Assembly: GCA_963664395.2 (NCBI GenBank)
Contig: OY761159.2
Coordinates: 2,752,001-2,816,000, forward strand
Reading direction: 5' to 3'
From: Candidatus Binatia bacterium
GTDB taxonomy: Bacteria; Desulfobacterota; Binatia; Bin18
Length of the DNA stretch: 64,000 nucleotides
Positions within the stretch are counted from its first letter, which is position 1. Each line of letters begins with the position of its first letter. A program made the translations under genes and the position numbers. The notes under the pieces were generated by a model. It was not told the DNA's origin. It was given only the letters and a program-made list of their open reading frames with translations, and searched no databases. This document shows positions 40,355 to 61,050 of the stretch, piece by piece.

Positions 40355-40834
40355 ATGGAAATTTTGCTTTTCGCCCTACTTTTTGCCATATTTTCTGCCC
40401 TCATCGCCAGCCATAAAAACCGCTCTGTTCTTGGCTGGTTTTTCGTAGGAGCCTTTTTCGGTCCGTTTGGACTACTTGTCGCCGCCTTCCCAAAACTCGA
40501 CCCGGCCAAAAACACGGCTCGAAAAGCACCCCAATCACGAAGTCAGGGTCGTCTTGAACAACATAACGCCCAGTTCCGCGCCTGTCCTCACTGCACCAAA
40601 CAAATCCCCAAAACCACCGACCAATGCCTGTTCTGTCACCAATCTGTCGAGCCCGAACCGATCAATCTTCCAAAGCCAGAAGCAGTAGTAGAACCTGAGA
40701 CAGAAGAACCAACCACCAAAGAAACCGTCCCAGCCGCTGCCCGCCTACGTGAGCTCGAGTCCTTGCACACCGACGACCTCATCACGGACGAAGAATACGA
40801 ATCTAAGCGTGCCGAGATCATGAAGGAACTCTAA
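40355..40834 (+). CDS. membrane protein with zinc ribbon and SHOCT domain
   Basis: 2 TM, CPHC..CLFC, LITDEEYESKRAEI. Confidence 0.75.
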   Translation: MEILLFALLFAIFSALIASHKNRSVLGWFFVGAFFGPFGLLVAAFPKLDPAKNTARKAPQSRSQGRLEQHNAQFRACPHCTKQIPKTTDQCLFCHQSVEPEPINLPKPEAVVEPETEEPTTKETVPAAARLRELESLHTDDLITDEEYESKRAEIMKEL

Positions 40835-40926
40835 CCATGCGTCCCTTTATCAGTTGAGTTGGTCCAGTGGCGGTGACTGCTCACGGTCAATAAACAACTA
40901 GAGGATAAAAGGCAGGCCAGCAGCAA

Positions 40927-40955
40927 GAAAAAAGCCCTTGCAGAAACAAGGGCTT
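40927..40955 (-). terminator. rho-independent terminator downstream of the tRNA 3' end
   Basis: AAGCCCTTG/CAAGGGCTT stem followed by a U-run on the minus strand. Confidence 0.75.
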
Positions 40956-41007
40956 GGTGAGAGCCACCCATCGGAGTCGAACCGACGACCTACTGATTAC
41001 GAATCAG
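40955..41007 (-). tRNA. 3' half of tRNA-Thr(CGT), att site remnant (not a full tRNA)
   Basis: minus strand CTGA-TTCGTAA-TCAG anticodon arm, GGTTCGACTCC T-arm, GGTGGC acceptor half; no D-arm or 5' half upstream. Confidence 0.85.
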
Positions 41008-41134
41008 TATGGAACGCATTTCGCGCACTTTCCTTATTTTGCTGATAGTTGTCATAGGTAGTTGAATATACTAGGTAAATACGAATATAGCCTTGCGCTT
41101 GCTTGCGTTGATTTGCGGTGGTATTCTGTCTCTG

Positions 41135-41154
41135 TGGTGACTTATTGGTGACTT
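41135..41154 (+). promoter_or_regulatory. putative integrase arm-type binding sites
   Basis: TGGTGACTT direct repeat x2 between att core and integrase. Confidence 0.5.
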
Positions 41155-41190
41155 TTCGACTCACTGACAGACACTGATTTGGAGGCGGAC

Positions 41191-42372
41191 ATGCTGACAG
41201 AACGACGTATCCGGGACGCGAAGTCGGCACCGAAGCCAGTCACCTTGTGGGACTCGCAGGTGACTGGCCTAGGTTGCAGGGTGTTCCCGAGCGGGCGCAA
41301 GGCGTTCGTCTTGTCCTACCGGGTCGCCGGCCGGAAGCGGTTGGCGACATTGGGACGGCCCTCGGAAATGAGTTTGCAGACGGCTCGGGAGATGGCGGCC
41401 GAGGAGGTCGTGCGTATCCGCGCCGGTGAGGCGGACCCGTTGGAACGGCGGCGGCAGATGCGGGAGGCTCCGACGGTGGCCGACGCGCTGGCACGATTCT
41501 TCGACGAAGTCGCACCGGCACGGATTGAAGCGGGTCGTATGACGCGGCGCACCGTAGACGAGTATCGGCGGCAAGCGCGACGGTACGTCGAACCTGTGCT
41601 TGGGTCCCTCCAGGTGGCGCGCGTGACCCGCGGCGACATTGAGAGAGTCGCGGCGACATTAGCCAAGACGCGGGTGTTGCGTAACCGGGTACTGGCGTTC
41701 CTGTCGAGGGTCTTCACCCTGGCCGAGCTTTGGGAATGGCGGCCGCAACAGACAAATCCGGTTCGGGGGGTCGAACGGGCAAGAGAGGAGGCCCGTGATC
41801 GTGTACTCGCGACATCCGAACTGTACGCCTTAAGTGCAGCCCTCAAGGCGCTGGAAAAGGTGAACCCGTTTCCGGTTGCCGCGATCCGGGTGGCGGCCAT
41901 GACCGGACTCCGGATTTCGGAAATCCTTTTGATGAAATGGGAAAACATCGATTTCGAGACCGGCCGCGTGGTGCTGCCGGCGACGAAAACCGGGAGGCGC
42001 ATTGCGCCGCTCGCTGCTCCGGTTCTTGAGCTGCTGGAGCGGCTCCCGCGCATCAACGGAAACCCGTGGGTATTCGCCGCAGGGCGGGGAGCGGCTACGA
42101 CGTACCGGACGGCGCGGGCTGTCTTCGCTGAGGCGGCCACGGCTGCGGGGCTCCCGGACGTGCGGCTGCACGATCTGCGGCGCTCGCTGGCCACTCGTCT
42201 GGCTGGAGCCGGAGTCAACGCCTACGTGCTGAGGGACGTGCTCGGCCACAAAACCTTGACGATGGCCAACAGGTATGTCCAGGTGGCCAGCGATGCCCTG
42301 ACCAATGCCACCGAGAAGGCTGCCGCGCTCACGGCCGCCGCGATGGCCGGGGAACAGCCAGCCAAAACATAA
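41191..42372 (+). CDS. tyrosine integrase with arm-binding domain
   Basis: GLRISE, HDLRR, LGH, NRY catalytic residues; N-terminal WD...GLG.RV arm domain. Confidence 0.95.
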   Translation: MLTERRIRDAKSAPKPVTLWDSQVTGLGCRVFPSGRKAFVLSYRVAGRKRLATLGRPSEMSLQTAREMAAEEVVRIRAGEADPLERRRQMREAPTVADALARFFDEVAPARIEAGRMTRRTVDEYRRQARRYVEPVLGSLQVARVTRGDIERVAATLAKTRVLRNRVLAFLSRVFTLAELWEWRPQQTNPVRGVERAREEARDRVLATSELYALSAALKALEKVNPFPVAAIRVAAMTGLRISEILLMKWENIDFETGRVVLPATKTGRRIAPLAAPVLELLERLPRINGNPWVFAAGRGAATTYRTARAVFAEAATAAGLPDVRLHDLRRSLATRLAGAGVNAYVLRDVLGHKTLTMANRYVQVASDALTNATEKAAALTAAAMAGEQPAKT

Positions 42373-42475
42373 GGGAGGACCGTCATGGATAAGAAGACTC
42401 CGCTATGGCAATTGACTGAGGCCGAAGGTACGGCGATCTGGCTTGAAATGATTTGGGCTCCAGATGCACTCGAAC

Positions 42476-42770
42476 ATGAGCGCTCCCCAATTGGAAGGAG
42501 CGCCTTCGAGGCTCCCGTTTAAAGGTTTGGCGGAAAGCGCGGAGAGCCGCATCACCCATATAGAGACACAGATTGAGTCTCGTGCCACTAAGGAAGACCT
42601 TAACTCAAAGTGTGGATTCTGGGTGGAGTAGCGGCAGCAGGATTGGCAATTGTCGTGGTGGCTCTCGGAGCGTTCTTCAGGGAAAGATTTAGAGGGGACG
42701 GAGCCCTTAACCTCAGAAGAGATACAATGGATTCGGGAATTTCGACAGGGGTGGGGAGATTATAAAAGAG
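42476..42770 (+). pseudogene. frameshifted small coiled-coil/TM protein
   Basis: ...ETQIESRATKEDL, then a shifted frame KVWILGGVAAAGLAIVVVALGAFF; boundaries approximate. Confidence 0.35.
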
Positions 42771-42986
42771 AGTCGGCTGAGTCGGCTGAGTCGGCTGCAC
42801 GGCGGCTGGCTCTTAGGCGTAAGGTTGGCGCTTTCATTAGCGGGGATTTGGCGAAATGCTCTTGATAATCTCGTTTATGCCGTCCTCAAATCCTTCGCTG
42901 TACAACGGACTGTATGTGGAATCCAGAAATCGTCGAGGCATTGCGGGAACGGGACATCTTCGTGGAAGAGAACTGCGCCCGACTAC

Positions 42987-43137
42987 GAGAAGCGTTAGAG
43001 CGCTCGGCATAGCGAACGCGCTTTTCTCTTCCCCAATCGTCAATTACGCCTTTCCCCCCAAAATTTACTATATCCAGGTATGAATAGAAAAAATGCAGGC
43101 TCCCTGTGGCCTGCGGATAGCGTGGTAAATAATTCCC
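42987..43137 (-). mobile_element. orphan 'long' end of TIR element (copy A), TIR at 43107-43137
   Basis: reverse complement GGGAATTATTTACCACGCTATCCGCAGGCCA plus ~120 bp similar to 44520-44642. Confidence 0.85.
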
Positions 43138-43364
43138 ACGAAAAACAGGGATGGGCCATATTCGACGAAAACAAACTCTACCTGACCGATGATCCGGCGC
43201 TAGCGGCGCTCGGACCATACAGCACGCTGGCGCATTGGCGGTCGGAAGGCCGAGGGCCGGCGTTCATCAAGCTCGGCAGCCGTGTTGCCTATTCGGGCCG
43301 AGATCTCAATGAGTGGCTTGAGACGCGAACCGTGCGGCCCATGAGCGAAGGGCGGCAGGGATGA
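43080..43364 (+). CDS. AlpA/excisionase-like HTH protein (N-terminus supplied by the TIR end)
   Basis: STLAHWRSEGRGPAFIKLGSRVAYSGRDLNEWL. Confidence 0.75.
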   Translation: MNRKNAGSLWPADSVVNNSHEKQGWAIFDENKLYLTDDPALAALGPYSTLAHWRSEGRGPAFIKLGSRVAYSGRDLNEWLETRTVRPMSEGRQG

Positions 43365-44675
43365 CCGCGCTCCGGGCCTTGGAGCAACGCGGGGGTCACT
43401 TTGTGTTGGCCGCTTCTGACAAGTCTCCAGTTTCCAAGGGATGGCAACGCAACCGTCCATCGTTCGAGGAAGTCGAACGCCATGCTACGGGCGGCGGGCT
43501 TGTGGGCGTGATACCGGTCTCTCTGGGTACTCTGGTGGTCGATGTTGACCAGGGCGGTGATGCTGGCGTGGCCGAAGCGGTCAAGGTTCTCGGTCAACCG
43601 ATTGTACAAACCAGGACCCGGCGCGATGGCGGCGCTCACCTGTGGTACCGTGCGGCCGGCGAGGTGCCGAACCGGAAGTGGGAACGCGGCGACGTGCGCG
43701 GCAGTGCGGGTTACGTGATCCTGTGGGAACCGGATCGGGTTCTAGCCGGGCTTGAAGCGGCCTACGCTTCGGCGGCACCGGTTAGTGCGGCTGACCTGAA
43801 TCGACTGGCTAGGACACCAGCCGGGCCGATTGGACCGCAGACGGTTAGGGCGGCAGCTCCCGGTACGCGAAATGACACGCTCAACCGCGTTGTCTACCAC
43901 GCGTCAAAGCGTGGTGAGAGGGACCTTGAACCGTACCGGGAAGCCTCTCTTGCCACCGGCCTTGCGTCGCGTGAGGTAGACGCCACGGTTGCGAGTGCGG
44001 CGCAAGCTGGCAAGGCGGGGGCGGCCGATGACGCACTATCTGAAGGAGCTTTTGCCCGAGAATGGGCGGCTAGCAACGGGCCAGACAAGTACCTCTACGC
44101 GGCTGGCGAAGGCTGGCTCTGCTTCGAGGACGGTTGCTGGCGTGAGGGTGAATGCGCGGCTCGTGCGTCGATGGCCAAGCACATCCGTGCGAGAGTCGAA
44201 GGAACAAAAGGGGCAAAGCGTTTTGATTGTCATCGTGTGGTTACGGGCGCACTCGCGATGGCGACATACGAGCGGACGGTCGCCGGAGATTCCTTTGATG
44301 CGAACTCACTCTTCGTCCCCTTCCCGAACGGAACGATCCTCGACGTGAAACCTTGGCTACAGATTGAGATGAGACCCGAGCATCGGGTCCGCAAGACACT
44401 CGACGTGGTGCCGCACACAGAGCCGTCGAAAGTCTGGATTCGATTCATCAACGAAACGCTATCTCACTACCAGCCGGGCGACCGCGAGGGGAATTATATA
44501 CCACGTTACCCGCAGGCCACAGGCAGCAGACATTCTTCTTGCACATACTCTCTATATAGTAAAAATTGGGCGAAGATAGTAATTGACGGTGTGGGAAAGA
44601 TAGAAAGCGAGTCCGCTATGCCGAGCGCTCTAACGCCTCTCGAAGACGAGCACTCTGTTCCTGCAATCCTTATGT

Positions 44676-44704
44676 GAGGAGGGCCGCTAAGACCCTCCTT
44701 TTTT
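44676..44704 (+). terminator. hairpin plus U-tract inside the long end of the cassette
   Basis: GGAGGG...CCCTCC followed by TTTTTT. Confidence 0.55.
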
Positions 44705-44706
44705 AT

Positions 44707-44946
44707 TCAAGCTGCTGCCTTACGCCAGCGGCGTTGTATGGTGTAGAGCGGAATTCCGCCTGGAGACAGAGGAGACTGGTCGAACAACTCTCGGTTCTTC
44801 TCAATATAAGCTTGCACTGTTCCAAGCGTCAAATTGGCCTCCCTAGAAATGCCGCCTAGGGAACGCCATTGAAAATTCGTGTGCTCGATGGCAGCAAAAA
44901 TTTGTCCCCCAATCGGGTCCCCAATGAACAGAGGTGGTGCACTCAT
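44707..44946 (-). CDS. small hypothetical, wHTH-like cargo protein
   Basis: WRSLGGISREANL; translationally coupled to the upstream gene. Confidence 0.55.
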   Translation of the reverse strand: MSAPPLFIGDPIGGQIFAAIEHTNFQWRSLGGISREANLTLGTVQAYIEKNRELFDQSPLSPGGIPLYTIQRRWRKAAA

Positions 44947-45293
44947 AAATCTCCCTCCTGTACGCCAGAAGGAGGCGCTGAGGCCGACGCTAATGTGTCC
45001 AAAACTAAATCCTCAACGGCATCCTTGAATCCAGCGCTTGTAAGGATATCCTGAAGGGTTGTAACATCTTTCTGAAGATTATCGGGTCGAGAGAAGGTGA
45101 TCCAGGCCACCAGACCTACGACCACCAAAAACACGAACACCATCATCCCAATCGCAATCAACCTATGGAGTGAGTCTAGCTCGTTGGTGACAGTAATTAC
45201 CCCAATACTCGACTCGACAATCAACAGGGCTAACGCAAAAAATTTTAGGGGCGAACTGACTCCTCTGAGGATGTCAACAATGCGACGCTCCAC
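44943..45293 (-). CDS. 2-TM hypothetical cargo protein
   Basis: PLKFFALALLIVE TM pair; upstream TTGACT-18-TATACA promoter-like sequence. Confidence 0.6.
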   Translation of the reverse strand: MERRIVDILRGVSSPLKFFALALLIVESSIGVITVTNELDSLHRLIAIGMMVFVFLVVVGLVAWITFSRPDNLQKDVTTLQDILTSAGFKDAVEDLVLDTLASASAPPSGVQEGDL

Positions 45294-45387
45294 TCATCCC
45301 CCTTATTAGCTCAATGTATAGAAGAGGTTCAGCAAAAAAGTCAAGGATGGTCTCTTGACCCGCCGCCCACAGCCAACGAACACCATG

Positions 45388-46596
45388 TCACCTGACATCA
45401 GTAATCACAAAGTTCTGGATCGTCTCCAGCCACTCCAGCGTGACCGTCTCGCCCGGACTCGGAAAGTCCCCCACAACACAACTCCCAGCCGTGTCCTCCA
45501 AAAACTCCTCCCCCAAGGTCGTCACCCGCACCGTGGCCCGGCCTAACTCCATGTCGTCCACATAGGCTACGACGGTATGGACCCCATCGCCTATCTGGTT
45601 CCAGTTGACTAAGAACCCAAAGCCGTTGTCCGTATCGCCACACATCGCCTCCGTGTCGGCCCGCTCCGTGCCATACGCGGCCTCCTGACTGATCGTTCTC
45701 CCATCTGCGGTTTCTATGACAATTTCGACCACCTCGGCCTCGCACGCCCAGCCCGAGATGACCCCAATCCCACTCTGAAACGAGTTGGGGCTCGGGTTCT
45801 CCATATATCCCACTACTGCCCCCGACGTGCCATTGATTCCCACCGGGGCGGCCCCGCTTGCAATCACGAAATTCTGACTGCTCCGCTGCCACACCAGTGT
45901 CGTCGTCAGGCCCAGCTGCGGAAAGTCTGCCAACCGACACTCCCCGGCCACGCCTCGCACAAACCCTTCGCCCAACGTGGTCACCGTTACGGTCGCTCGA
46001 CCAAACTCTACCCCATCGGCTAGTGCTACAACCGTGTGCCCCCCATCCCCCAACAGACTCCAGTTGAAGAGGACGCTAAAGGCATTGTTCGTGTCCTCAC
46101 ACGCCTCTATGGTGCTCAATAGCTCGGTCCCATACGCCGCCCTGAGCCGCTGCCCATCTATCTCGATCTCCACTCGTTCGATCTCTCCGTTGCCGGTCCG
46201 ACAGACCCAGCCCCAAATCGGTCCAATCCCGCTCTGGAAGGAGGCCGGGCCAGGATTCTCTAGGGACCCCACCACGGTTTCGATCACCACGGTCACCGTC
46301 ACGGTCGCTCGATCAAACTCTACCCCATCGGCCAGTGCCACCACCGTGTGCTCCCCGTCCCCCAACTGATTCCAGTTGAAGGAGAGGCTAAAGCCATTAT
46401 GCGTGCCCTCACACGCCTCTGTGCTCAAGAGCGAGGGTATCATCCCATACGTCGCTATGTACCGCTGCCCGTCTATCTCGATCTCCACGCGCTCGATCTC
46501 TCCGTGGTCGGTCCGACAGACCCAGCCGAAAATGGGTCCGGTCCCGCTCTGGAATGTATCTGGACTCGGGCTCTCCAGGGACCCAACCACTACCAT
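45388..46596 (-). CDS. stand-alone protein built only of the LENP-FQSG-FNWN module
   Basis: three module copies (first incomplete); no signal peptide or passenger domain. Confidence 0.75.
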   Translation of the reverse strand: MVVVGSLESPSPDTFQSGTGPIFGWVCRTDHGEIERVEIEIDGQRYIATYGMIPSLLSTEACEGTHNGFSLSFNWNQLGDGEHTVVALADGVEFDRATVTVTVVIETVVGSLENPGPASFQSGIGPIWGWVCRTGNGEIERVEIEIDGQRLRAAYGTELLSTIEACEDTNNAFSVLFNWSLLGDGGHTVVALADGVEFGRATVTVTTLGEGFVRGVAGECRLADFPQLGLTTTLVWQRSSQNFVIASGAAPVGINGTSGAVVGYMENPSPNSFQSGIGVISGWACEAEVVEIVIETADGRTISQEAAYGTERADTEAMCGDTDNGFGFLVNWNQIGDGVHTVVAYVDDMELGRATVRVTTLGEEFLEDTAGSCVVGDFPSPGETVTLEWLETIQNFVITDVR

Positions 46597-46709
46597 AAGA
46601 ATAATAAATCGTCCGTAAGGGACCGCCTACAGGAGGAAAGTGACATCATCGGGGGGAACCCCGAGTGCAAAGCCTCCCGTGGCGGCTGTAATGGAACGGA
46701 CCCCTAGGC

Positions 46710-46919
46710 TTACTCCCACTTCTTTGCAGGGATCGGCTTGATTTGTCCACGTTCCACAAGGGCGTCGTGGAACTTTATCAGCCGACCTGTAATGAGGCAA
46801 TTAACCTCGGATCGTGTCATGTGCAGGCTGCTCTCCTTCGGTTCTTCGTGAGGCTCCGTACCGTTGTCAATCCTCTCTTGTACCAAATCTCTCATTTCCT
46901 GTAGCTTTTTTTCTTCCAT
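46710..46919 (-). CDS. small hypothetical cargo protein
   Basis: 69 aa with GGAG RBS next to the right TIR. Confidence 0.5.
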   Translation of the reverse strand: MEEKKLQEMRDLVQERIDNGTEPHEEPKESSLHMTRSEVNCLITGRLIKFHDALVERGQIKPIPAKKWE

Positions 46920-48187
46920 TCTTTACTCCCTTAGCACTGTAAGCGTCTGGTTCTTGCGGCTTTTTGATAAGAAATAACGCTGCGCTACGGGGGGTGAAAG
47001 ATTTCTTTTGTATTTTGGCCTGCGGGTAAATTGGTATATAATTCCCACCGCGAGGCAGTAGCGGGCTACTTACAGGAATGGTGCGGGGTAGCGCTCACCG
47101 GCGATTGCCGGGACGAGGCATGCATCTTCGCGTGGGGCGATCCGGGTTCTGGCAAATCAACATTTTCCGAGACGCTGTTGGCAGTAGCCGGGACGTTCGG
47201 GACGACCATCGGCAATGGCTCGCCGGTCTCCAAGGCAAACGCCTCGTTGTCGTCAACGAGCTTCCAGAACGCGGCCGGTGGCATTCGGACGATCTCAATC
47301 TGCTGATCGACGGAGGGCTAATCGAGGCTAACCGGATGCGCCAGAACTCCGCCGTCTTTGCATCACGAGCACACCTGCTTATAGCCAGTAACCATCGACC
47401 TTCTGCTCCGGCCGCGTCCGGCCTGTGGCGCCGGCTACGAATAGTTGAATTCCGCAACCGACCGACCGTGGTGGATAGGGGGCTCAAGCGTCGGTTAAAG
47501 GAAGACCTTCCGGGCGTGCTCGCATGGATGCTGCAAGGGCTACGGAGATGGAAGGAGCGTGGTCGGTTGCCAGACGTACCCGCGCTGATGGCGTGAGGCG
47601 TTGAGCGATACCGGCAGGCGGCAGACCCGATCTCGCGGTTCGTGGTTGAACGCACCGAGCCGGACGCCAAGGCGTCGATTGAGGTCGCCACGCTATACAA
47701 TGCCTTTAATTCGTGGTGGCGGGCGGAAGTCGATGACAGGGTGCCAAGCAAGAAAGCGCTTGGGCAGGCTCTCGACGAGATGGGGTGGCTGCCAGCGGTC
47801 GTACGACGGGGGAGTAGGCATCGGGTCGGCCACCGCTTGCGATGTGCAACGTGACAACGCGTGTTACGCGTTGTCCGGTATAGACGACTCACGCGCGTGC
47901 GTGAGGGACGGAAACAGGGGAAATACGTAACATACGTTGTCACGTTGCGAATGAACAAACCTAGGGAGGCTGGGCGCGCGGGGCTAGAGCAGTTTTCATG
48001 GTGGTGTAGCGAGGCGATAGCCGGCGTGGCGGAAGTAGTTGGCGCACTCGGCGGGGGAGAAGACCGGGAGGGCATGGCCGATGTCGTTATGGAAGCACTC
48101 GCTGAAAAATACGAGCTAGAGGTTGTAGCGTACGAGCCGTGATCCCTATTCCCCGGCTGGCGAAAGTCAAAAATAACCGGGGATACG

Positions 48188-48463
48188 TTGCCCGAAGGAA
48201 TACTCAAAGACTCGCCAGAAAAAGCAACCCAGGTCGCCGAAGAACTAACAAACGTCGCCAATCAGAAAGCACATGCACGACGTATTCATGCCCAAGACCT
48301 GAAAAACATGGGATTGGTCATCAAGGACCTTAAAGAGAACGATGACCTTCAAGAAGCAGTTTTATCCGTTCACCACGCTTTCATGATTGCTCTCTCCAAT
48401 TTCTGTCGGGTGCATGAGTCACTGCGCGTGACACCAGCACTGGAACCAAGTCCCGCCGATTGA
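48188..48463 (+). pseudogene. chimeric remnant: Clp-fold (SDH/S49) protease C-terminus fused to IS1-like transposase tail
   Basis: HARRIH...LQEAVLSVHHAFM followed by NFCRVHESLRVTPALE. Confidence 0.5.
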
Positions 48464-48810
48464 TCCGTTCCCACAGTTACGGGAGACCCACCGTCTGCAT
48501 AAACTCAACGTCCTGCGCGGCAGTGGACGTATCCGGTAAGGCTGACCAAATGAGGAGAATACTATATTTGACTCACCAAGCGAGACCCGCGCTTCCTTCA
48601 ATGAGGCCGTTCGCTTTGAAATTAAGCGGTTTGGCTTCCAATGCGGACAGGGCCAGCTCCTCAAGATGGCGGGAGCCCTCTACCGTTAGCTGGTAGGTTC
48701 TGAAATTCTCAACTTTGGTCCAGGCAAGTACAGTATATAACTCCCCCTTGGGAGGGATTGTCCGCAGGGTCTGTCCTGAGCGTGTCGCAGGGCCGGGGTG
48801 GGCAGGTCCT

Positions 48811-51800
48811 CTACTCCACGTCCGTAATCACAAAGTTCTGACTATTCTGGTGCCATTCCAGGGTAACGGTCCTGCCCAGCGTCGGAAAATCCTCAACAAT
48901 ACATTCGCCTTCAACGCCCCGTAGAAACTCTTCTCCCAGGGTCGTCACCCGCACCGTGGCCTGGCCTAACTCTACGTCATCCACATAGGCCACGACTTCA
49001 TGCTCCCCATCCCCCAACAGGTTCCAGTTGAACAAGAGGCCGAACCCATTATCCGTATCCCCACACGCCGACTCCGTATCCAGCCGCTCCGTGCCATACG
49101 CCGCCGGCTGTGGCACCCCGTTCAGCGCAATCAGGACCGCGTCCCCCTCACACACTCAGCCAGAGATCACCCCAATGCCGCTCTGAAAGGAGTTGGGGCC
49201 GGGGTTCTCCAGATACCCCACATCAATCGCTCCGGCTCGGTCCGCCCCGGTCGGGGCCGTGCCGCGGGCAATCACAAAATTCTGCTGCCTCTGTTGCCAC
49301 TCCAGCGTCGCCGTCTCGCCGAGCAGGGGGAAGTCCTCCACCACACATTCGCCCGCAACGCCCCGCACGAACTCCTCGCCCAGCGTCGTCACCGTCACCG
49401 TCGTCCGGCTCAACTCCACCCCATCGACCAGGGCCACGACTTCATGCTCCCCGTCGCCCAACAGGTTCCAGTTGAACAGCAAGCCAAAGCCGTTGTCCGT
49501 ATCCCCACAGGTTTCTTCCGTGTCCGACCGCTCGGTCCCATACGCCGCCGCCTGCGGCATCCCGTTCAGCTCTATCTCCACCTCGTCGGCGGCACATACC
49601 CAGCCCGAGATGACGCCGAGGCCACTTTGAAAGGAATCGGCGCCGGGGTTCTCCAGATTGCCGATGAGTTCCGGTTCTTCTTCGGTGGTGGCGGGGCCGC
49701 CGCCCCCGCCGCCCCCGCCCCTACCGCCGGTACTGGTGCCTGTCCCCGTGCCGGTACCCGTCCCACCGCCGGTACTGGTGCCACCACCACCGCCTGGAGG
49801 GGTGGGCGGCGGTTGGGACCCCTGGCTGGTGCCGCTGCACCCCGCGACCGAAGTCTCAGGCGAGACATATGTGTAGCTGCCGTCTGAGTCCGCCTCGATC
49901 CTGTTACCCGCGAGGTCCCGGAGACCCCTGCCCACAGCCACATAGCTGATATGAAGGCTGTGGTCGAAGGACTTCGCGAGCGTCAGCGTCACCTTCGTCC
50001 CGCAGAGCTGGACCCGGTCAAAGACGATAGGCAACCGGTCAGCAGAGGTGGTTACCACAGTGAAGTTTGTCGGCAGGGGCACCCATTCGGGGTCGAGCTC
50101 CTCGTCCCAGGTGGCCACCAGCGTGTAGCCGGCGACCTCCGCTGCGACCAACTTCGGCGGGGTGACGTCCAACCCGGCCTCCTGGCCGGTGACGTTCACG
50201 ACCGGATGGTCGTCAAAAGCAGCAGCGGCATTATATGCCACATCATCGATTCCTCCGCTGCCCGTATAGTTCAGCGTCACCGTGTCGCCCGCCATCACTG
50301 CCGTGTCCAGCGTCAGGATGACCCGCGCGCCGGTGACCCGCGCTTCGGTGACCGTACCCGAGATCCCGGTGAAGCTGGTCAGGTTCAACATCCCCGATGC
50401 CAAATCCTCGTTGTAGTCCAGCGCCAGCATGTTACCGTCCACGGTCGCCCGCACCAGCTGCGGCGGTGTCCCGTCCGTCATCACGGTCGCCTTTGCGACC
50501 GCGCCTTCGTTGTGGGGCGCTGTGTCGTCGTTGATGGCCCGGACCTCGACCGTATAGGGCTGACCAGTCATGAGGTCGTGGGTGGTATGGTTTGTCGTCT
50601 GCGGAGGGACCTCCGTCCAACTCGTCCCGTCCGGTACTGTCGAGCCCTGCGCGTAGCGGTATTCGTAGCGGATAAGATCGGCATAACCGGGAGATTCCGG
50701 CGCAAGCCACTCCAGGTGCAGGGAGGTCTGGCCAGCTACTCCCCGCAAGTACCGCACGGCCGTCGGCGCGCGCCGCTGGGGTGTGGCCGTAATACGGGAC
50801 GTATTCCACGGCCCCTGATCGCTCTGCGGGCGCACGTCGAAGTAATACAGGCGGTTGTATACCGAGAAGTCGGTGATCCCAACCGAGCACGGGCACGTAC
50901 GCCTTCCCAGGGCGGTGTACGGCTTGGAATCGAGCTCGCTCTCCGAGCGGGCGTAGCGGTACTCGTAACTAGTGACCGTCGCGCCGGCGATGTTCGCCGG
51001 CGTGTCCCAACCGAGCGTGATCCCATCGCCCATCCGTTCAGCCGTCAGCTTTCGCACCACGGGGCGGAGGCGGCCGTCCACCTTGTGGTCGGCCTGCGTC
51101 CCGCGTCCAGGGTGGATGAGGTCGGCGTCCACCCCGCCCGCCTTGATCGTCCCGCCGTTCAGTTGCAACCCACGACCGGTGTCGCGCCGGTCGTAGATGA
51201 AGAGGCCGTCGGTGTCCAGGTCGATAGCCGTGACGATGTAGAGCAGGAACAGTTCCGCGCCGCTACTGTCCGCCGCGCTGTACTCGGCCTGGCGCTCCTC
51301 GTCGTCGATGCCGAACACCAGCACCGGCGCTCCGGTGACGGTCACCGCCTCGCTGAACGTCGCAGTGAACCGGATCGTCACGCCGGCGGAGTAGATGTTG
51401 CCCTCCTGGTTCGGCGTGGACATGACGGCCAGCGACTTTACCCACGGCCCGGTCCGGCTGCCGTCCACCTTGTGGCCCGATTGATTGTTTACCGCGGAGT
51501 GGGTGATAAGGGCTGCGGCGCTGTCATCGGCCGCAAGGATGGTCCCGCCATTGAGTTCCAGGGCGTCCTGAGCAATGTTGATCCCGTCGGTGTCGGCGTC
51601 GCCCGCCTGGACCGTGTAGGTGAATTTGAGTGTGCTCGTGTCACTACCGCTCTGGTAGTTGGCGTACTGCATGTTGAGGAGCGGGAGCCGCGGCGTGCCG
51701 GTGACGGTCACCGCCTCGTTGAACGTCACCGTGAACTCAATCACCCCGCCCGCCCCGTAGACGTCTTTGAGCGCCTGACTGTTGTTCGGGGGAATGCTCC

Positions 51801-52437
51801 AGCGTTGCGGCGACGACGTGACTGCGATGCCCTGAGCCACGGGGAAGGTGTTCACGAACCCCTCTATCTTCAGCGTATAGGATTTGTCGTTGCCGATCGT
51901 CCATTGCGTAGGCGTAGCCCCAGTATCATACCAGCGGTGCTTATTGTGGATGGACCAGCCGGTCATGCTCCCGCTGTCCTCGGCGTCGGTTTCGGTGGTA
52001 TCAATCCTTGGCTTGTTGCTCTGGTCGATGGTACTGGTGACGCGGATACTCACGGCGTACGTGGTGCTCGGCGCGACGTTCATTCCGCTGTGCGTGAACG
52101 TCTTGAGACCAATGGCCGAGAAGCCGTCGGTCGGCGCCGTAAACGCGGTGCAGGTCGCGTTCGGCACATCCGTCACACCATCGGCAGTTTGGACGCCGCA
52201 GACCTTCAGCTCGAAAACGTCGGTCACTTTTTCCGTCTCGATCGTGATGGCGGTGATCGAGAAGCCGGCCGTGGACGCGGTGCCCGTTGTGAACGGTTGC
52301 GCCGAGTGGGGGACCCCGATGTCCTGGGAGCCGTCGGGCACCTGATCGACATTGGACACCAGGACGCTGGCTGTCTGCGCCGCCGCCCCGGCCCACAAGA
52401 CGCATATTGCCACAGTCATCACTATCAGTCGCTTCAT
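48811..52437 (-). CDS. large secreted adhesin-like protein (Ig-like, 2xFN3, 2xSwmB-like, Gly linker, 2x module) with internal TGA at 49156-49158
   Basis: signal peptide MKRLIVMTVAICVLWAGAAA; frame continues past a TGA at a position that is TGG (Trp) in paralogs. Confidence 0.8.
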
Positions 52438-52559
52438 GACGTTCACTCCTCTCATAAAGGCCCAATCCGCCCAGGCCGCCCCAGGACCAGCAGGGCACTC
52501 GCGCAGAGCAGAAATCGCTCCCACCTGTCGGCACCTGGATGAAGGCCCCTAGTCTAATG

Positions 52560-52798: not shown

Positions 52799-54460
52799 CT
52801 ACTCCACATCCGTCATCACAAAGTTCTGACTATTCTGTTGCCATTCCAGGGTGACGGTCTGCCCCAGAGCCGGGAAGTCCTCGACCATACAGTCCCCCTC
52901 AACGCCCCGCAGAAACTCCACGCCCAACGTCGTCACCCGTACCGTCGCCCGGCCCAGCTCTTCGCCGTCCACCCAGGCGACCACCGCATGCTCCCCATCG
53001 TCCAGCAGATTCCAGTTGAACAAGAGGCCAAAGCCATTGTCCGTATCCCCACACGCTTCTGCGGTATCCAGCCGCTCTGTGCCATACGTGGCCACGTGGC
53101 GCGCGACCTCTCCCCCCTCGCACACCCAGCCCGACAGCACCCGGACCCCACTCTGAAAGGAGTTGGGGCCGGGGTTCTCCAGATAGCCCACCCCGGCTGA
53201 CCCGGCCCGGTTCATTCCTGTCGGGGCCGGACCGGCTCGGATCACAAAGTTCTGCTGCGTCTCCTGCCATACCAGCGTCACGGTCTCCCCCAGAGCTGGG
53301 AAGTCCGGCACCGGACAGGTGCCGGCTACGTCTCGCAGAAACTCGCTCCCCAAGGTTGTCACCGTCACGGTAGCGCGGTCCAACTCGACGTCATTCACTC
53401 GGATGATCACCGTATGTTCCCCGGCCCCCAGCAGATTCCAGTTGAACAACAACCCAAAGCCGTTGTCCGTGTCGCCGCAGGTGTCTGCCGTGTCCAAGCG
53501 CGCCGTGCCATACGCGGCCTCCTGCCGCACGGTGGTCCCCCTCGCGGTCGCAATCTCGATCTCCACCGCCTCGGCCTCGCACACCCAGCCCGAGATAAGC
53601 CCGATGCCGCTCTGAAAGGACGCCGCGCCGGGGTTATCCAGATAGCCCTCAGGCTCAAAGGGCGGGGCCGACCGGCGCCCGCCACCACCACCCCCACTGC
53701 GCCCGCCACCGGTGGAGACCTCGGGGGGGACCTCGGTGGGGGGATCCGTGCCGCCACCGCCGGCGGCGACGGTGATGTCGAAGTCGTCGCTGACCGTCCC
53801 GCCCTTGCCGTCGCTGGCGGTCACCTGCACGGACACCGTCCCCACATCCGCCTCCGCCGGCGTGCCCGCGAAGGTCCGCGTGCCGGCGTCGAAGCTCAGC
53901 CATGTCGGCAGGTTCGTGCCGTCACCCTGCGTCGCCGTGTAGCTCAGCGTGTCGCTGTCCACGTCGCTGAACGTGGTCGTCGGGAAGGCGTAGCTGAACG
54001 CCGTGCCCGCCGTCGCCGTCTGGTCCGAAAGCGCGTTCGCCACCGTCGGCGCGGTGTTGGCGGCGGTGCCGGTGGTGGCGCTGGCGACGTTGGAGGGAAG
54101 GCCGGTGCCGATCGAGTTGATGGCCGAGACGCGGTAGTGGCGGGTGGTGCTGGCGGCCAGCTCGGTGTGCGCGGAGATGGTGGTGGTGCTGTTGGTGTTG
54201 GCGACCTGGTCGGTCCAGGTGGTGCCGCTATCGGAGGAGATCTCGATCTTGTAGCCGGTGATGACGCGGCCGCCGTTGTCGACCGGGGCGGTCCACGAGA
54301 GGTTGATCGTGGTGCTCCCGCTGGCGGTGGCCGTGAGGCCCGTCGGGGCGTCCGGGGCCGTCGGGGCGTTGGCCGGCCGGGTGGAGTTGTTGGTGACGGC
54401 GGGGACGCCGCCGGCGCCGGTGGTGAAGGACGCGGCGTCGTTGCCGGCGGTGTCCTGGAT
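52799..54460 (-). pseudogene. 5'-truncated adhesin-like gene (SwmB tail, FN3, putative Ig/He_PIG, 2x module)
   Basis: open frame from 54460 (IQDTAGN...) cut exactly at the TIR starting 54461. Confidence 0.8.
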
Positions 54461-54565
54461 GGGAATTATATATCACGTTACCCGTAGGCCACACGTAGCC
54501 TGCATTCTTCCTACACATACAGCTATATAACAAAAATGGGGCTGGGATAGTAATCGACGGATATG
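54461..54565 (+). mobile_element. 'long' end of TIR element (copy C); partner end not in window
   Basis: GGGAATTATATATCACGTTACCCGTAGGCCA plus conserved subterminal region. Confidence 0.85.
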
Positions 54566-56307: not shown

Positions 56308-57129
56308 TCAGCAGGATAAGAGGCTACCGGGTCCGTTTCTCAAGTTTGGTAGTACCCCCTCCTCTATCTCGGAAGTATATACCAGCTTACCCATAGCCGA
56401 AAATACCGCTGCATCAAAAAGGCATGGGGGAGTCTCGGCCTTCTCACATAACTCCTGAATGCCGTCCAACACAAATTCATAAAACTCTTGGTTAGTAAGC
56501 ATGCCGGCATGAAGTTTCGCATGACCCTGGGGTAGGGACTGATTCAGCCATTTGATAACCCGACTGTCGAGGGGAATTTCGTACCGAGTCAGCCCAAGCA
56601 ACTGAAGCAGGTTACGGGATTGTTTCGGACCGAACCCCTTGAATACCTGGGCGATCTCCTGCGCGACCCTACGCTCCTCCTTAGCCGAGACAAGTCTGGT
56701 CAACTGATTGCATTTGGGGAGGACGTTCTGCCACCCCTTTTCCTTCTCAAGATACTGCAAATTGTACGTGAGGTCCCGCGCACTCTGCTTGTACTTTCCA
56801 ATCCCATGCGTACGAACAGTCTCTCGAATAAATCCCTCTTTCCCTCTTTTGGGGCGCACGATTTCATAGGCGAGAGGGAAGGGGCTCTCTCTTCCTAGTT
56901 TATCTACTGGACTCCCTGGCCCCACTTTGTTCTGCATGGTAAGGCGAGCCAGGACCATTTCACGCCAAAAGTCCTCTTTCCTTACGTCTGGCTTTTTTGC
57001 GGCAAGGTTCTTCGCCCGCTCTGTGGCCAGTTGCTGGAACAGGGGCGCTTGCGCCTGGCTCTCAAGAACCTCCTGAACGCGGGCTATGTCACGACCCTGA
57101 GTTTTCCACTGAATCTCCAACATTCTCAA
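56308..57129 (-). CDS. HhH-superfamily (8-oxoG glycosylase-like) protein
   Basis: FKGFGPKQSRNLLQ...IPLDSR HhH-K...D pattern. Confidence 0.55.
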   Translation of the reverse strand: MRMLEIQWKTQGRDIARVQEVLESQAQAPLFQQLATERAKNLAAKKPDVRKEDFWREMVLARLTMQNKVGPGSPVDKLGRESPFPLAYEIVRPKRGKEGFIRETVRTHGIGKYKQSARDLTYNLQYLEKEKGWQNVLPKCNQLTRLVSAKEERRVAQEIAQVFKGFGPKQSRNLLQLLGLTRYEIPLDSRVIKWLNQSLPQGHAKLHAGMLTNQEFYEFVLDGIQELCEKAETPPCLFDAAVFSAMGKLVYTSEIEEGVLPNLRNGPGSLLSC

Positions 57130-57442: not shown

Positions 57443-60400
57443 CTAGCGGTGTTCTACCTCCACCGCGTTGCTACTGCAGTTGTTGGTGGTATCCGTCTCG
57501 CCCCGCGCCGCGACCACACAAGCCCAGTAGTAGTAGGTCCCCGGCTCTGGCTGAGGATCGGGGAAGGTGTACGTCAACTCACGATAATAAGTCGTATTGG
57601 GCTGGACAACATGAACCCTCCACCCCGAGTCTAACCTCTTGTCGTTGGATGCCGATATCGCCGCATCGCTCGACCGATAGAACCAGAGCCTGGTAGGAAA
57701 TGACTCCCCGGTTCCGTCATTCCGCACGCGCGCGACGAGCGTACCTCCCCCAGCTCTCATCTCGCTGACAACAAGGTCCGATGCCCCCGCTATTGCGGTC
57801 CGCACGGACGTGAACGGCCCCCCGCTCGAACAGGCGATGGTGGAATCCGGATCGCTCGTCGCCGCATCGACGCACGCCCCGTAATACCATTCGCCGGTGG
57901 TCCCGGGCGCCGTCAGCGTAATCGATTCCCGTCTCCAAGCCGACCTGGAAGACGAGAACGCCTCCATCGCGATTGTGCCCACCTCCGTGTCCGATCTCGT
58001 AATCGTCCTGTCCGGCGAGCGGTAGAGGCGCAGCGTCGTCGCCGGCAAAGCCACATACCCAGGGCTCAATGTCACCGACATCGAGAATGTCTCGCCCGGC
58101 GTTACGGTGGCGGACACAACTACCTTCACCCCTACGTTGGCCCAAGGGTTATTTTCGGGTTGCGTCTGCTCTACCCCTACCTGCACGCGTACCCCGCTCG
58201 AACAGTTGTTCGTCGTGTCCCCTTCCTTATGCACCGCGTCCACGCAGGCGCCGTAGTAGTAGGTTCTGACGCTCGTCGGCGCGGTTATCAAGCCCGTCGC
58301 GTGGTAGGTCATCCCGACGAGAAGATCGCGAACCGAATACGTGCCCAGCTCCGTGTCCCACGTCGTGATCGTCGCGTCCGTCGAGCGGTAGAACCGCAGC
58401 GTCGTACGCGTTGCCCAGTAGCCGCCCGCGTTGCGCACCGTCGCCGAGAAGGTGAAGGCCGTTCCGGCGGCCGGGCTGTCGTTGCTCACCCCGGGTGAAA
58501 GCACCACTAGGTCCGGTGGCGTTCCCCGAACCGGACCCGGACCCGGACCCTGACTCGTGATCGGAACCGGAACCGGACCCGCGACCCTGACCGTGACCGT
58601 CACGGCCGGGGAGCAGTTGTTGGTCGTGTCCGACTCATCCGTCACCGCATCGACGCACGCCCCGTAGTAGTACGTGCCGGGGCTCGAGGGCGCCGTCACC
58701 GGAGTCGCCATGCGGGGGCTGCCCGCCGCCGCGAGCGCGCGCACCGCGTCCGTCCCCACCTCCGTGTCCTCCGTCGTGATCGTCGCGTCCGGCGAGCGGT
58801 AGTAGCGCAGCGTCGTGGCCGCCGACTCTCCGTCGCCCGTGTTCGTTACCGTAGCAAACAAGTAATCGCTCTCTCCGGTCTCGGGAGTGTTGTTGGTTAT
58901 CCTCAGCGCCCCTACCACCAGGTCCGGTTGGCTCTGAATTTGCTGCTGCGTTACCAGAACCGTTACCTCTCTAGAGGACGAGCAGTTGTTGGTCGTGTCG
59001 GACTCGTCCGCCACCGCGTCCACGCACGCGCCGTAGTAGTATGCGCCGGGGCTCGAGGGCGCCGTCAGCGCAATCGACTCGCTGCTGGTCCCCGAAGCGG
59101 CCAGCCCCGCCACCGCGGCCGTGCCCACCGCCGTGTCCGTTGCCGTGATCGTCGCGTCCGTTGACCGGTAGAACCGCAGCGTTGTAGCGGCAGCGGCGCC
59201 GTCCCCCTCGTTCCGTACCGTGGCCGACAGCGTGAACGGCGCACCCGCCTCCAGGGTATCCTCGCTCACCGACGGCGCCGTCACCGCCAAGTCCCCGCCC
59301 GCCGGCTCCCGCCGGTTCTGCGGCGCGGTGGGGGTGGACCGCCCGCCCGCCGATGTCCCCCGGCTCCCGCCCGCCGATGTCCCCTGGCTCCCGCCCGCGG
59401 CACGCGCCGCCGGCGGCGCAGTGACCGCGCCCGCCGTATAGTCCACTATCACAAAGTTCTGACTGGTCTGGTGCCATGCCAGCGTGACCGTCTGGGCCAG
59501 AGCCGGGAAGTCCTCCACCACACACTCGCCCTCAGCCCCCCGCACAAACTCCTCGCCCAGGGTCGTCACCCGCACCGTGGCCCGGCCTAACTCCATGTCG
59601 TCCACATAGGCCACGACCTCGTGCTCCCCCTCGCCCAGCAGGTTCCAGTTGAACAACAACCCAAACCCGTTGTCCGTGTCCCCACACGCCTGCAGCGTGT
59701 CCTGCCGCTCCGTGCCATACGCGGCCGGCTGTGGCACCCCGTTCAGCGCAATCAGGACCACATCCCCCTCACACACCCAGCCCGAGATGACCCCAATGCC
59801 ACTCTGAAAGGAGTCGGGGCCCGGATTCTCCAGATACCCCACCCCCGGCACCCCCGCCCGGTTCTCCCCGCTCGGGGCCATGCCGCTGGCGAGGACAAAG
59901 TTCTGCTGCGTCTCCTGCCACACCAGCGCACCCGTCTCGCCCACCATGGGGAAGTCGGGTGCTGCACATGTCCCCGTCACGCCCCGCACAAACTCCGCCC
60001 CCAGGGTGGTGACCGTCACCGTGGCGCGACCCAATTCAACGTCATCCACAAACGCCACGACTTCGTGCTCCCCGTCGCCCAACAGGTTCCAGTTGACCAA
60101 GAGCCCAAAGCCGTTGTCCGTATCCCCACACGCGGCTGCCGTGTCGCGCCGCTCCGTGCCATACCCGGCTTCCTGACTGATCGTTCTCCCATCTGCGGTT
60201 TCTATGACAATTTCGACCGCGTCGGCCGCACATACCCAACCCGAAATCACCCCGATGCCGCTCTGAAACGCATGCAGCCCCGGATTCTCCAGAGAGCCGC
60301 TGGACTCCGCAGACATCTCGCTGCCACCGCCCTTGCGGCCGCTGCTCCCAGAAGCGGTCCCAGTGCCCCCGGTAGTGCCCCCGGTAGTGCCCCCACCAGT

Positions 60401-60838
60401 GCCCCCGGTAGTGCCCCCACCAGTGCCCCCGGTGGCGGCACTGGCCATCGTATCGAGGTCAACATACTTAACCTCAGGCAGACCCTCGATGGCGCGCTGC
60501 TCAGCCTTGAGTTCGGCCAGCGTCAGGGTGTCAGGCACGTGTTCGGCAATGAGCTGCTTGAGGCCGTCCAGCCGGCGCGCGACCGTCCAGCCCGCGCGCT
60601 GCTCCACTGCCGCGGCGGCCTGATCTACGGTGGAGCCCTGCGCTACTGCTATGAGGAGGGTGTCCAGGATCACACAGGCGTCACCATCACGGGCGACGCG
60701 GCCAAAGCCGCGCGTCTCGTCACAGGGGGCCGCGTCGCCCTGGGCTGCGACCGGCGGGCTGGCCGCCAGACCCACGATAAGCAATACCGCGGCCAGGACG
60801 AGGCCAGCTCTCAGTCTTCTACCTTCAGTCTTTCTCAT
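57443..60838 (-). CDS. large secreted protein: propeptide-like domain, Gly linker, 2x module, ~5 CARDB-like repeats
   Basis: signal peptide; repeated LRFYRS.D.TIT...YYYGACVDAV..ESDTTNNCS. Confidence 0.8.
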   Translation of the reverse strand: MRKTEGRRLRAGLVLAAVLLIVGLAASPPVAAQGDAAPCDETRGFGRVARDGDACVILDTLLIAVAQGSTVDQAAAAVEQRAGWTVARRLDGLKQLIAEHVPDTLTLAELKAEQRAIEGLPEVKYVDLDTMASAATGGTGGGTTGGTGGGTTGGTTGGTGTASGSSGRKGGGSEMSAESSGSLENPGLHAFQSGIGVISGWVCAADAVEIVIETADGRTISQEAGYGTERRDTAAACGDTDNGFGLLVNWNLLGDGEHEVVAFVDDVELGRATVTVTTLGAEFVRGVTGTCAAPDFPMVGETGALVWQETQQNFVLASGMAPSGENRAGVPGVGYLENPGPDSFQSGIGVISGWVCEGDVVLIALNGVPQPAAYGTERQDTLQACGDTDNGFGLLFNWNLLGEGEHEVVAYVDDMELGRATVRVTTLGEEFVRGAEGECVVEDFPALAQTVTLAWHQTSQNFVIVDYTAGAVTAPPAARAAGGSQGTSAGGSRGTSAGGRSTPTAPQNRREPAGGDLAVTAPSVSEDTLEAGAPFTLSATVRNEGDGAAAATTLRFYRSTDATITATDTAVGTAAVAGLAASGTSSESIALTAPSSPGAYYYGACVDAVADESDTTNNCSSSREVTVLVTQQQIQSQPDLVVGALRITNNTPETGESDYLFATVTNTGDGESAATTLRYYRSPDATITTEDTEVGTDAVRALAAAGSPRMATPVTAPSSPGTYYYGACVDAVTDESDTTNNCSPAVTVTVRVAGPVPVPITSQGPGPGPVRGTPPDLVVLSPGVSNDSPAAGTAFTFSATVRNAGGYWATRTTLRFYRSTDATITTWDTELGTYSVRDLLVGMTYHATGLITAPTSVRTYYYGACVDAVHKEGDTTNNCSSGVRVQVGVEQTQPENNPWANVGVKVVVSATVTPGETFSMSVTLSPGYVALPATTLRLYRSPDRTITRSDTEVGTIAMEAFSSSRSAWRRESITLTAPGTTGEWYYGACVDAATSDPDSTIACSSGGPFTSVRTAIAGASDLVVSEMRAGGGTLVARVRNDGTGESFPTRLWFYRSSDAAISASNDKRLDSGWRVHVVQPNTTYYRELTYTFPDPQPEPGTYYYWACVVAARGETDTTNNCSSNAVEVEHR

Positions 60839-61050
60839 CTCCCACCCTTCCTGTTCTTGCTCGGGCCTTCCCTGCCTCGCCATCTTCTCTTGCCGGGCAG
60901 TGGCACGGCGGCGGGGGGGATAGTGCGGTTACCGACCCCCAGAGAAGGTCCCTTATAATTCAATGCCGTAGCCCCTGTCCCCTATCAAATGGTAGAAAAA
61001 TGACCCCGCCCGGGCCTGCGCATGTCACCGGGCCGGGATGAGCAGAGCCG

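Follow-up and report, generated by a model that had tools for sequence, protein, structure and literature searches.

Insertion sequences (ISs) of the IS1595 family are presented in one part of PMC8101967 as comprising seven groups, including ISNwi, with 8-bp duplications and with zinc and DDE domains, and a row of the ISfinder table in PMC9670130 attests an ISNwi1 group and no more. Miniature inverted-repeat transposable elements, mobile insertion cassettes, solo ends and transporter ISs are defined in a section of PMC3129680, according to which a mobile insertion cassette consists of IS ends around passenger genes without a transposase, as in the element described here, and its movement depends on a cognate transposase located elsewhere. 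We analyzed a 64 000-nt stretch of DNA (hereafter the window) from the Candidatus Binatia bacterium assembly GCA_963664395.2 (contig OY761159.2, positions 2 752 001–2 816 000 of the forward strand), in which a transposase-less cassette of 2558 bp, named element A, occupies positions 44489–47046. Window coordinates are used throughout unless contig C1 or a record (L) is named. With a probability of about 0.75, we consider element A to be a non-autonomous, passenger-carrying derivative of the IS1595 family, i.e. a mobile insertion cassette, whose transposase is most likely supplied in trans.

Mobile insertion cassettes are represented by MIC231 (IS231/IS4 family) of the Bacillus cereus group and by the qnr-carrying cassettes of Proteeae and Aeromonas. 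Mobilization of MIC231 in trans has reportedly been demonstrated experimentally, and Siguier et al., whose 2009 paper PMC3129680 cites for IS1595, are said to have described the ISNwi1 group of IS1595 and its passenger-carrying members. Like the IS1595 transporter ISs, element A has ends that start with GG (GGGAATTAT) and an 8-bp target duplication, and its terminal inverted repeats (TIRs) are shared with transposase-bearing IS1595 members. Its cognate elements resemble the transporter ISs further, each encoding, next to unrelated passenger genes, one transposase in which an N-terminal zinc ribbon, a feature of most IS1595 groups, accompanies the DDE_Tnp_IS1595 domain; element A differs from them in having no transposase. 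Since elements with the same ends do have one, element A was filed as a non-autonomous derivative and not as an IS. Its arrangement of IS-type ends around passenger genes, with no transposase, is that of a mobile insertion cassette, but unlike MIC231 it belongs to IS1595 rather than IS4, has no helper in the same genome and carries a cargo with no recognizable adaptive function. The tip GGGAATTAT fits ggnnatTAT, the end consensus of the ISNwi1 group, whose other mark is a transposase that clusters with ISNwi1; element A may belong to this group.

An earlier sequence-only reading had placed the cassette, including its exact 8-bp target-site duplication, at 44481–47054, and these coordinates, the TIRs and the duplication were all correct when the letters were read again:

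44481–44488, no strand: left copy of the 8-bp target-site duplication ACCGCGAG, read directly; a single copy is present in the empty-site contig of run X4 (see below)
44489–44519, plus strand: left TIR, 31 nt, GGGAATTATATACCACGTTACCCGCAGGCCA, with the tip GGGAATTAT; read and found by pattern search
47016–47046, minus strand: right TIR, an inverted copy of the left TIR; read and found by pattern search
47047–47054, no strand: right copy of the target-site duplication ACCGCGAG, read directly

The two TIRs are identical at 29 of 31 positions, with both mismatches at positions 16–17. The window contains four matches to the 31-nt pattern when up to three mismatches are allowed, whereas 100 dinucleotide-preserving shuffles gave an expectation of 0.00. 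The 8-bp target-site duplication of the IS1595 family is thus present in full, with ACCGCGAG on both sides of the element and one copy at the empty site. An outward-facing promoter-like site, TTGGCC-16-TATAAT, lies in the right TIR at 47015–47042 as a consensus match only.

Element A interrupts the primase gene of an island in which a tyrosine integrase gene (41179–42372) and a helix-turn-helix (HTH) gene of the HTH_17 type stand upstream of the primase:

43361–44488, plus strand: upstream part of the primase, with Prim-Pol and D5_N domains (Pfam and NCBIfam matches)
47055–47596, plus strand: downstream part of the primase, with the Walker-A/DUF5906 region (Pfam and NCBIfam matches)

The upstream frame, which opens at 43361, completes a codon at 44488 (..GAC CGC GAG), and once 44489–47054 is removed it is picked up at 47055 as GCA GTA GCG GGC TAC (AVAGY) and continues as AVAGYLQEW, which confirms the earlier claim that excision restores the frame. 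The downstream piece matches DUF5906 and the P4-type primase C-terminal domain. On the NCBIfam profile NF011296 the upstream piece covers positions 19–181 and the downstream piece positions 188–235, and because these adjoin, the insertion alone separates the primase halves.

The occupied junctions were bridged with zero differences by contigs of two runs, X1, which contains 98% of the sampled words and is possibly the source sample, and X3, which comes from a different study. The empty site came from a third study, in whose run X4 a single contig of 2321 nt (record 19, depth 42.5) links 44480 directly to 47047; it follows 43780–44480, then 47047–47209 and on to 48620 at ∼96–98% identity. Its joint leaves out 2566 nt, corresponding to element A (2558) and one copy of the duplication (8), and nine letters fit either side. 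This contig is an uninterrupted primase allele with a single ACCGCGAG, i.e. the empty site; X4 is without contig cover at parts of the stretch (44808–45275), and its evidence is that of the bridging contig only. The empty primase allele that the sequence-only reading had suggested looking for was therefore found in a sequencing run and not in the genomes of relatives. A DNA search of 40 relatives with 43361–48200 gave only domain-repeat matches among the matches listed, and in none of 27 congeners did the N-terminal part of the primase have a homologue at E ≤ 1e-10.

The primase gene is broken a second time in this genome, by a 37-nt deletion between 12-nt direct repeats at 47198–47209, where the alleles of X4 and X7 have 25 additional letters and the repeated 12-mer. 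According to the coordinates, the 47055 frame leads without a shift into the 47078 frame in the X4 allele, which agrees with the frame change found in the window. The primase was accordingly hit twice, by the insertion and by the deletion, and the deletion shifts the frame independently of the insertion.

These alleles also bear on whether 44489–47046 might be something other than a transposon insertion, be it an intron-like element, a cassette of site-specific recombination or a chimera of the assembly, a reading to which we give almost no credence. The assembly is of the metagenome type (95.9% complete, 5.4% contamination), and nothing else was found that would favor such an origin. The junctions are bridged without difference in runs from two different studies, the length difference at the empty site is precisely that of the element and 8 bp, and TIRs with 8-bp duplications are a recurrent feature, seen in 10 of 13 pairs (see below). 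Pfam and NCBIfam scans found no recombinase inside element A, and Rfam gave no RNA family in 40500–49000. ARAGORN found nothing around the island.

The ends of element A were also found outside this locus. Six occurrences of the 31-nt end were found in this genome, confined to C1 2795107–2834524; a looser search gave 13 tips and a terminal-motif search a few further solo tips. A degenerate 23-nt tip was present at 28 loci, mostly of Dehalococcoidia and Candidatus Binatia, in a genome collection with one genome per species, and at 10 loci this tip lay 87–640 nt from the start of an intact transposase gene. Judged by their coordinates, three of the Binatia records correspond to G006, G012 and G016, which places the genome studied here in the genus of those records. 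By tblastn, full-length IS1595-type transposases were found directly inside such ends in Dehalococcoidia (L012, L027, L031, L032 and L034), and the same ends enclose intact transposases in congeneric genomes (L045, L049, L055 and L061) and in one of the same family (L067). The cognate transposases are intact at 311 aa. Two of them were scanned and matched Zn_ribbon_IS1595 (PF12760, 34 bits) and DDE_Tnp_IS1595 (PF12762, 118–130 bits), with 183–188 bits on NF033547 (cut-off 75), and plasmid homologues of the cognates with identities of 45% or less are annotated as ‘IS1595 family transposase’. Two Dehalococcoidia copies (L014 and L026) have the gene order transposase, then methylase. No partner end that would give a simple autonomous copy of ∼1.1 kb was found around L031, L027 or L034. 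That one end type is common to distant phyla suggests horizontal spread.

We then paired the ends and tabulated their flanks, including those of element B, a sister element in the same genome:

Eight pairs of the genome collection, all exact: CTCGGAAA, TAAGTTAA, TTTCTTTT, CTAGTATT, CTTACTTT, TCTTGGGA, GTCGGTTT, AAATCTAT
G005 pair, 3.26 kb, with a transposase: exact duplication TCCGAGGA
Element A pair: exact duplication ACCGCGAG
Element B pair: TCCAGGGA and TCTCGGGA, 6 of 8 letters agreeing
G053 pair, holding a transposase: without duplication
987-bp pair of this genome: without duplication; the right flank is a repetitive extragenic palindromic (REP)-like repeat with a small deletion

Exact 8-bp duplications are therefore the rule, flanking 10 of the 13 paired copies (the eight collection pairs, the G005 pair and element A). 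Of the seven pairs that bear a transposase, all but one show an exact duplication; the six transposase-less pairs are those of 51, 92, 987 and 1042 bp and elements A and B, among which the 51-bp and 92-bp mini-elements and a 1042-bp one-gene element of a congener have exact duplications besides element A. The classification as a non-autonomous IS1595-type element was thus borne out by the intact IS1595 transposases within the same ends elsewhere and by the prevailing duplications. Neither of the two outcomes that the sequence-only reading had named as fatal to itself, a lack of cognate transposases in this and related genomes or paired copies lacking the duplication, was obtained, since cognate transposases exist in related genomes and the paired copies mostly have 8-bp duplications.

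Both mini-elements are from Dehalococcoidia (92 bp, L015 1932–2023; 51 bp, L019 2001–2051) and are scarcely more than two tips. The tip variant of the 51-bp one is that of the L014 and L026 transposase-methylase copies in the same genome.

Within element A, no transposase or remnant of one was found in 44489–47046. A scan of the whole genome with PF12762 gave five matches (one intact gene, three partial ones and one remnant in element B), none of them inside element A; tblastn with two IS1595 transposases had no match there, and its right 646 nt were empty for a profile built on seven cognate transposases. The same profile did not support a longer decayed remnant (‘HSGFP..’) that had been considered for the segment shared by A and B.

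That shared segment relates element A to element B:

C1 2831462–2834524 (L001 5462–8524): element B, 3063 bp, inserted in a REP-like hairpin
46613–46632, minus strand: terminator-like hairpin 3′ of the 69-aa open reading frame (ORF) of element A, at which the A–B homology stops (hairpin scan and A–B alignment)
46710–46919, minus strand: small ORF of element A, 69 aa, common to element B (ORF and alignment)

Element B consists of the right TIR, the 69-aa ORF, a transposase remnant, an N6/N4 methylase-HNH fusion (497 aa), a 245-aa ORF and the left end. Its remnant is the last 54 codons of a cognate transposase (profile positions 258–311 of 312, E 3e-26) and has 79–83% identity to the L045 and L055 transposases of congeners. 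The A–B alignment begins with the right TIR, takes in the 69-aa ORF and reaches the hairpin at 46613–46632, where the remnant of B starts and the alignment stops. An end of homology at this junction fits a common ancestor without a transposase, and we infer that A and B descend from such an ancestor and exchanged cargo afterwards, which would imply at least one later move made with no transposase inside the element. The 1042-bp derivative of a congener holds only a homologue of the 245-aa ORF (76% identity) and a 32-aa methylase fragment, within an exact duplication.

The same comparison bears on the possibility that element A inserted as an autonomous IS1595 element with passengers, then lost its transposase in place and was never mobilized in trans, which we consider unlikely. 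Six of the 13 pairs, all with exact duplications, hold a transposase and passenger DNA over 2.7–8.2 kb and the seventh transposase-bearing pair (G053) has no duplication, element B shows that most of a transposase gene was lost internally in this lineage, and there is no helper transposase in the genome, all of which would suit a loss in place. On the other side, no remnant of a transposase could be detected in element A, the start of the remnant in B coincides with the end of the A–B homology, for which an ancestor already without a transposase is the easier explanation, and the 51-bp and 92-bp mini-elements have exact duplications in genomes that hold cognate full elements. Mobilization in trans would be favored by the polymorphism of the insertion between strains and by the cognate transposases of four congeners.

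Several findings weigh against mobilization of element A in trans. The search for an IS1595 DDE transposase with the same ends, which the sequence-only reading had proposed, succeeded in other genomes, four of them of the same genus, and failed in this one: the cognate transposase is absent from the assembly, which has just transposase-less copies and solo ends, and the missing gene could lie outside the 95.9% that is complete. The sole intact IS1595 transposase of the genome (C1 637405–638337) is encoded by an element of 3131 bp (C1 635254–638384) that also has a methyltransferase gene; it is 43–47% identical to the cognates, and the inner TIR of its element differs from that of A. The tips of this element (GGGACTAATATACTTGAC.CAAC) have 11 of the first 13 nt as in the tips of A and differ further in, and its flanks show no duplication. 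Element A was seen at one site only, which gives no direct view of a transposase-less move. The shared A/B junction amounts to ∼7 nt that are also part of the hairpin, and modular recombination between elements could give the same pattern.

In the preferred reading of a cassette mobilized in trans, element A retains both ends recognized by the DDE transposase of its family and has a small conserved ORF near one end and three unrelated cargo ORFs. The ends, the duplication and the empty site show that it entered the primase of the integrase/HTH/primase island by DDE transposition, duplicating 8 bp of target, and that this took place later than the split from the island lineage sampled in X4, which keeps the empty site. 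Most likely, a cognate element of the type still found in congeneric genomes provided the transposase in trans; that transposase is no longer present in this genome, which leaves the cassette stranded. The insertion inactivates the primase of what is a decaying genomic island.

The remaining features of element A are as follows:

44520–44706, no strand: non-coding transposase-distal end region (similarity to solo ends and element B)
44707–44946, minus strand: cargo ORF, 79 aa, without Pfam, NCBIfam or PADLOC match; single copy in the genome
44943–45293, minus strand: cargo ORF, 116 aa, hydrophobic, without Pfam, NCBIfam or PADLOC match; single copy
45388–46596, minus strand: cargo ORF, 402 aa, with three tandem domains of ∼130 aa (Pfam Big_7, E 2.4e-8; self-comparison)

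All four ORFs of the sequence-only reading, co-oriented and without a transposase, were found again, and the transposase searches inside the element were empty. The 116-aa ORF, which at its stop shares 4 nt with the start of the 79-aa ORF, probably encodes a membrane protein, judging from its hydrophobic translation, and matched unnamed clusters only in the Atlas (0.92–0.94). The 79-aa ORF matched unnamed Atlas clusters at 0.94 and HTH/z-alpha clusters at 0.82–0.83, so that a small winged-helix protein is possible as a lead. In the 69-aa ORF the conserved part is the final ∼35 aa (MTRSEV..LIT.RL..FH..LVERGQI.PI). This ORF had no match in Pfam, NCBIfam or PADLOC and aligned with three loci in metagenome contigs, which are small ORFs with a motif of 25–30 aa in common and without TIRs or transposase; no parent element of this module was found among those contigs. 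The unique parts of the cassette had no match in 40 relatives among the matches listed.

The domain of the 402-aa ORF has a weak Pfam Big_7 match and is expanded in the genus, with 234 tblastn high-scoring segment pairs in this genome and presence in at least 19 of the 24 congeners searched, among the matches listed. It was modeled as a β-sandwich with moderate confidence (predicted local distance difference test score of 67), and a Foldseek search of the model against the PDB gave nothing at E ≤ 0.001, the best rows being CBM48 and filamin-like at 6e-3 or weaker. The neighboring genes at 49156–52524 and 57443–60883 have the same domain in large proteins with hydrophobic N-termini, read by eye as signal peptides. 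The 402-aa ORF has no signal peptide, its start coincides with a domain boundary, and its last residues are QNFVITDVR where two neighboring frames end in QNFVITDVE and QNFVMTDVE, and for these reasons it resembles the 3′ part of a surface-protein gene; it looks like a 5′-truncated fragment of a larger one. With a best nucleotide match of only 72%, a recent origin by local copying is excluded. The proposal of the sequence-only reading that the cassette spreads a surface-protein module fared poorly, given that the cassette is at one site only, that the 402-aa ORF has no signal peptide and is truncated at its 5′ end, and that homology is the sole support. The cargo is probably hitch-hiking DNA, including a 5′-truncated fragment of a surface-protein gene, rather than a selected module.

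The left end region of element A is similar to a solo end at 42977–43137 (79% over 164 nt), to the end at 54461 (81% over 101 nt) and to element B (87% over 82 nt), and is closed at ∼44677–44706 by a GGAGGG..CCCTCC hairpin followed by a T-run, which was read by eye and, with its 9-nt loop, was not listed by the hairpin scan. The solo end at 42977–43137 (minus strand) is a transposase-distal end without a partner. An ATG at 43080 within it opens a frame that reads outward over the tip and continues without a shift into the HTH_17 gene, for which it is the only start codon, and the outward ATG is kept in the ends of elements A, B and C and of the G006 element. Another solo end at 54461–54491 (plus strand) abuts and truncates a large surface-protein gene (52799–54472, minus strand), and no right end was found for it; a minus-strand frame is open from within its tip down to 52799. 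A weaker tip-like site lies at 56370–56392 (plus strand). At 48796, where this genome is uninterrupted, a left-type element tip of 39 nt is attached in the opposite orientation in X4, which may, on the thin evidence of one contig with a short side, represent a strain-specific insertion. A stretch of ∼96 nt at 47982–48079 is found again in four congeners at 84–91% identity, three times in G001; its folding is no more stable than that of shuffles (z −0.04), and Rfam gave no match to it.

Targets of the family in this genus had a feature of their own. Several flanks have the form CCCC-TCCNNGGA, and at least 34 copies of a two-hairpin repeat of ∼45 nt (tCCCCTCyyGGGAGGGGTGsCsCGnAGsGsCGGGGTGGGtt) are present in the genome, e.g. 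at C1 300180, 685123 and 2834529, with paired changes in the second hairpin (GCCGCGTAGCGGC, GGCCCGAAGGGCC and GGCGCGTAGCGCC). In other genomes of the family, 16 of 29 distinct ends had the flank [CT]CTC[CT]NN[GA]GA, for which the background in this genome was 1.1e-4 per position, and the eight duplicated bases are centered on the loop of the first hairpin. These flanks suggest that, in this genus, the IS family inserts mostly into the loop of the REP-like hairpin. Element A is not in a REP, its target ACCGCGAG being within a gene, and the Dehalococcoidia copies have AT-rich targets unlike the REP hairpin. Ends at a REP-like hairpin are a likeness to the REP-targeting ISs (ISPpu9, ISPpu10, ISPa11, ISPsy8, ISRm19, ISRm22 and IS621), most of which belong to the IS110 and IS3 families. 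REPs as IS targets are described, for other IS families, in a portion of PMC1525189, and a search of the literature on IS1595 and extragenic palindromic sequences found no open paper on a REP-loop preference of the IS1595 family. It is a long shot that the IS1595 lineage of this genus has come to target the REP loop by structure or sequence and that its transposase-less cassettes take up and carry 3′ fragments of the vastly expanded Ig-like surface-protein genes, which could recombine into resident genes; if true, silent modules and resident genes would form a transposon-fed cassette system for surface variation.

Element A would be an ordinary derivative of a known IS family, and the general understanding of insertion sequences is unchanged by it. 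It puts on record a clean transposase-less cassette of the IS1595 family with both its occupied and its empty allele, and should aid the annotation of Binatia and Dehalococcoidia genomes, in which such elements are otherwise read as hypothetical genes.

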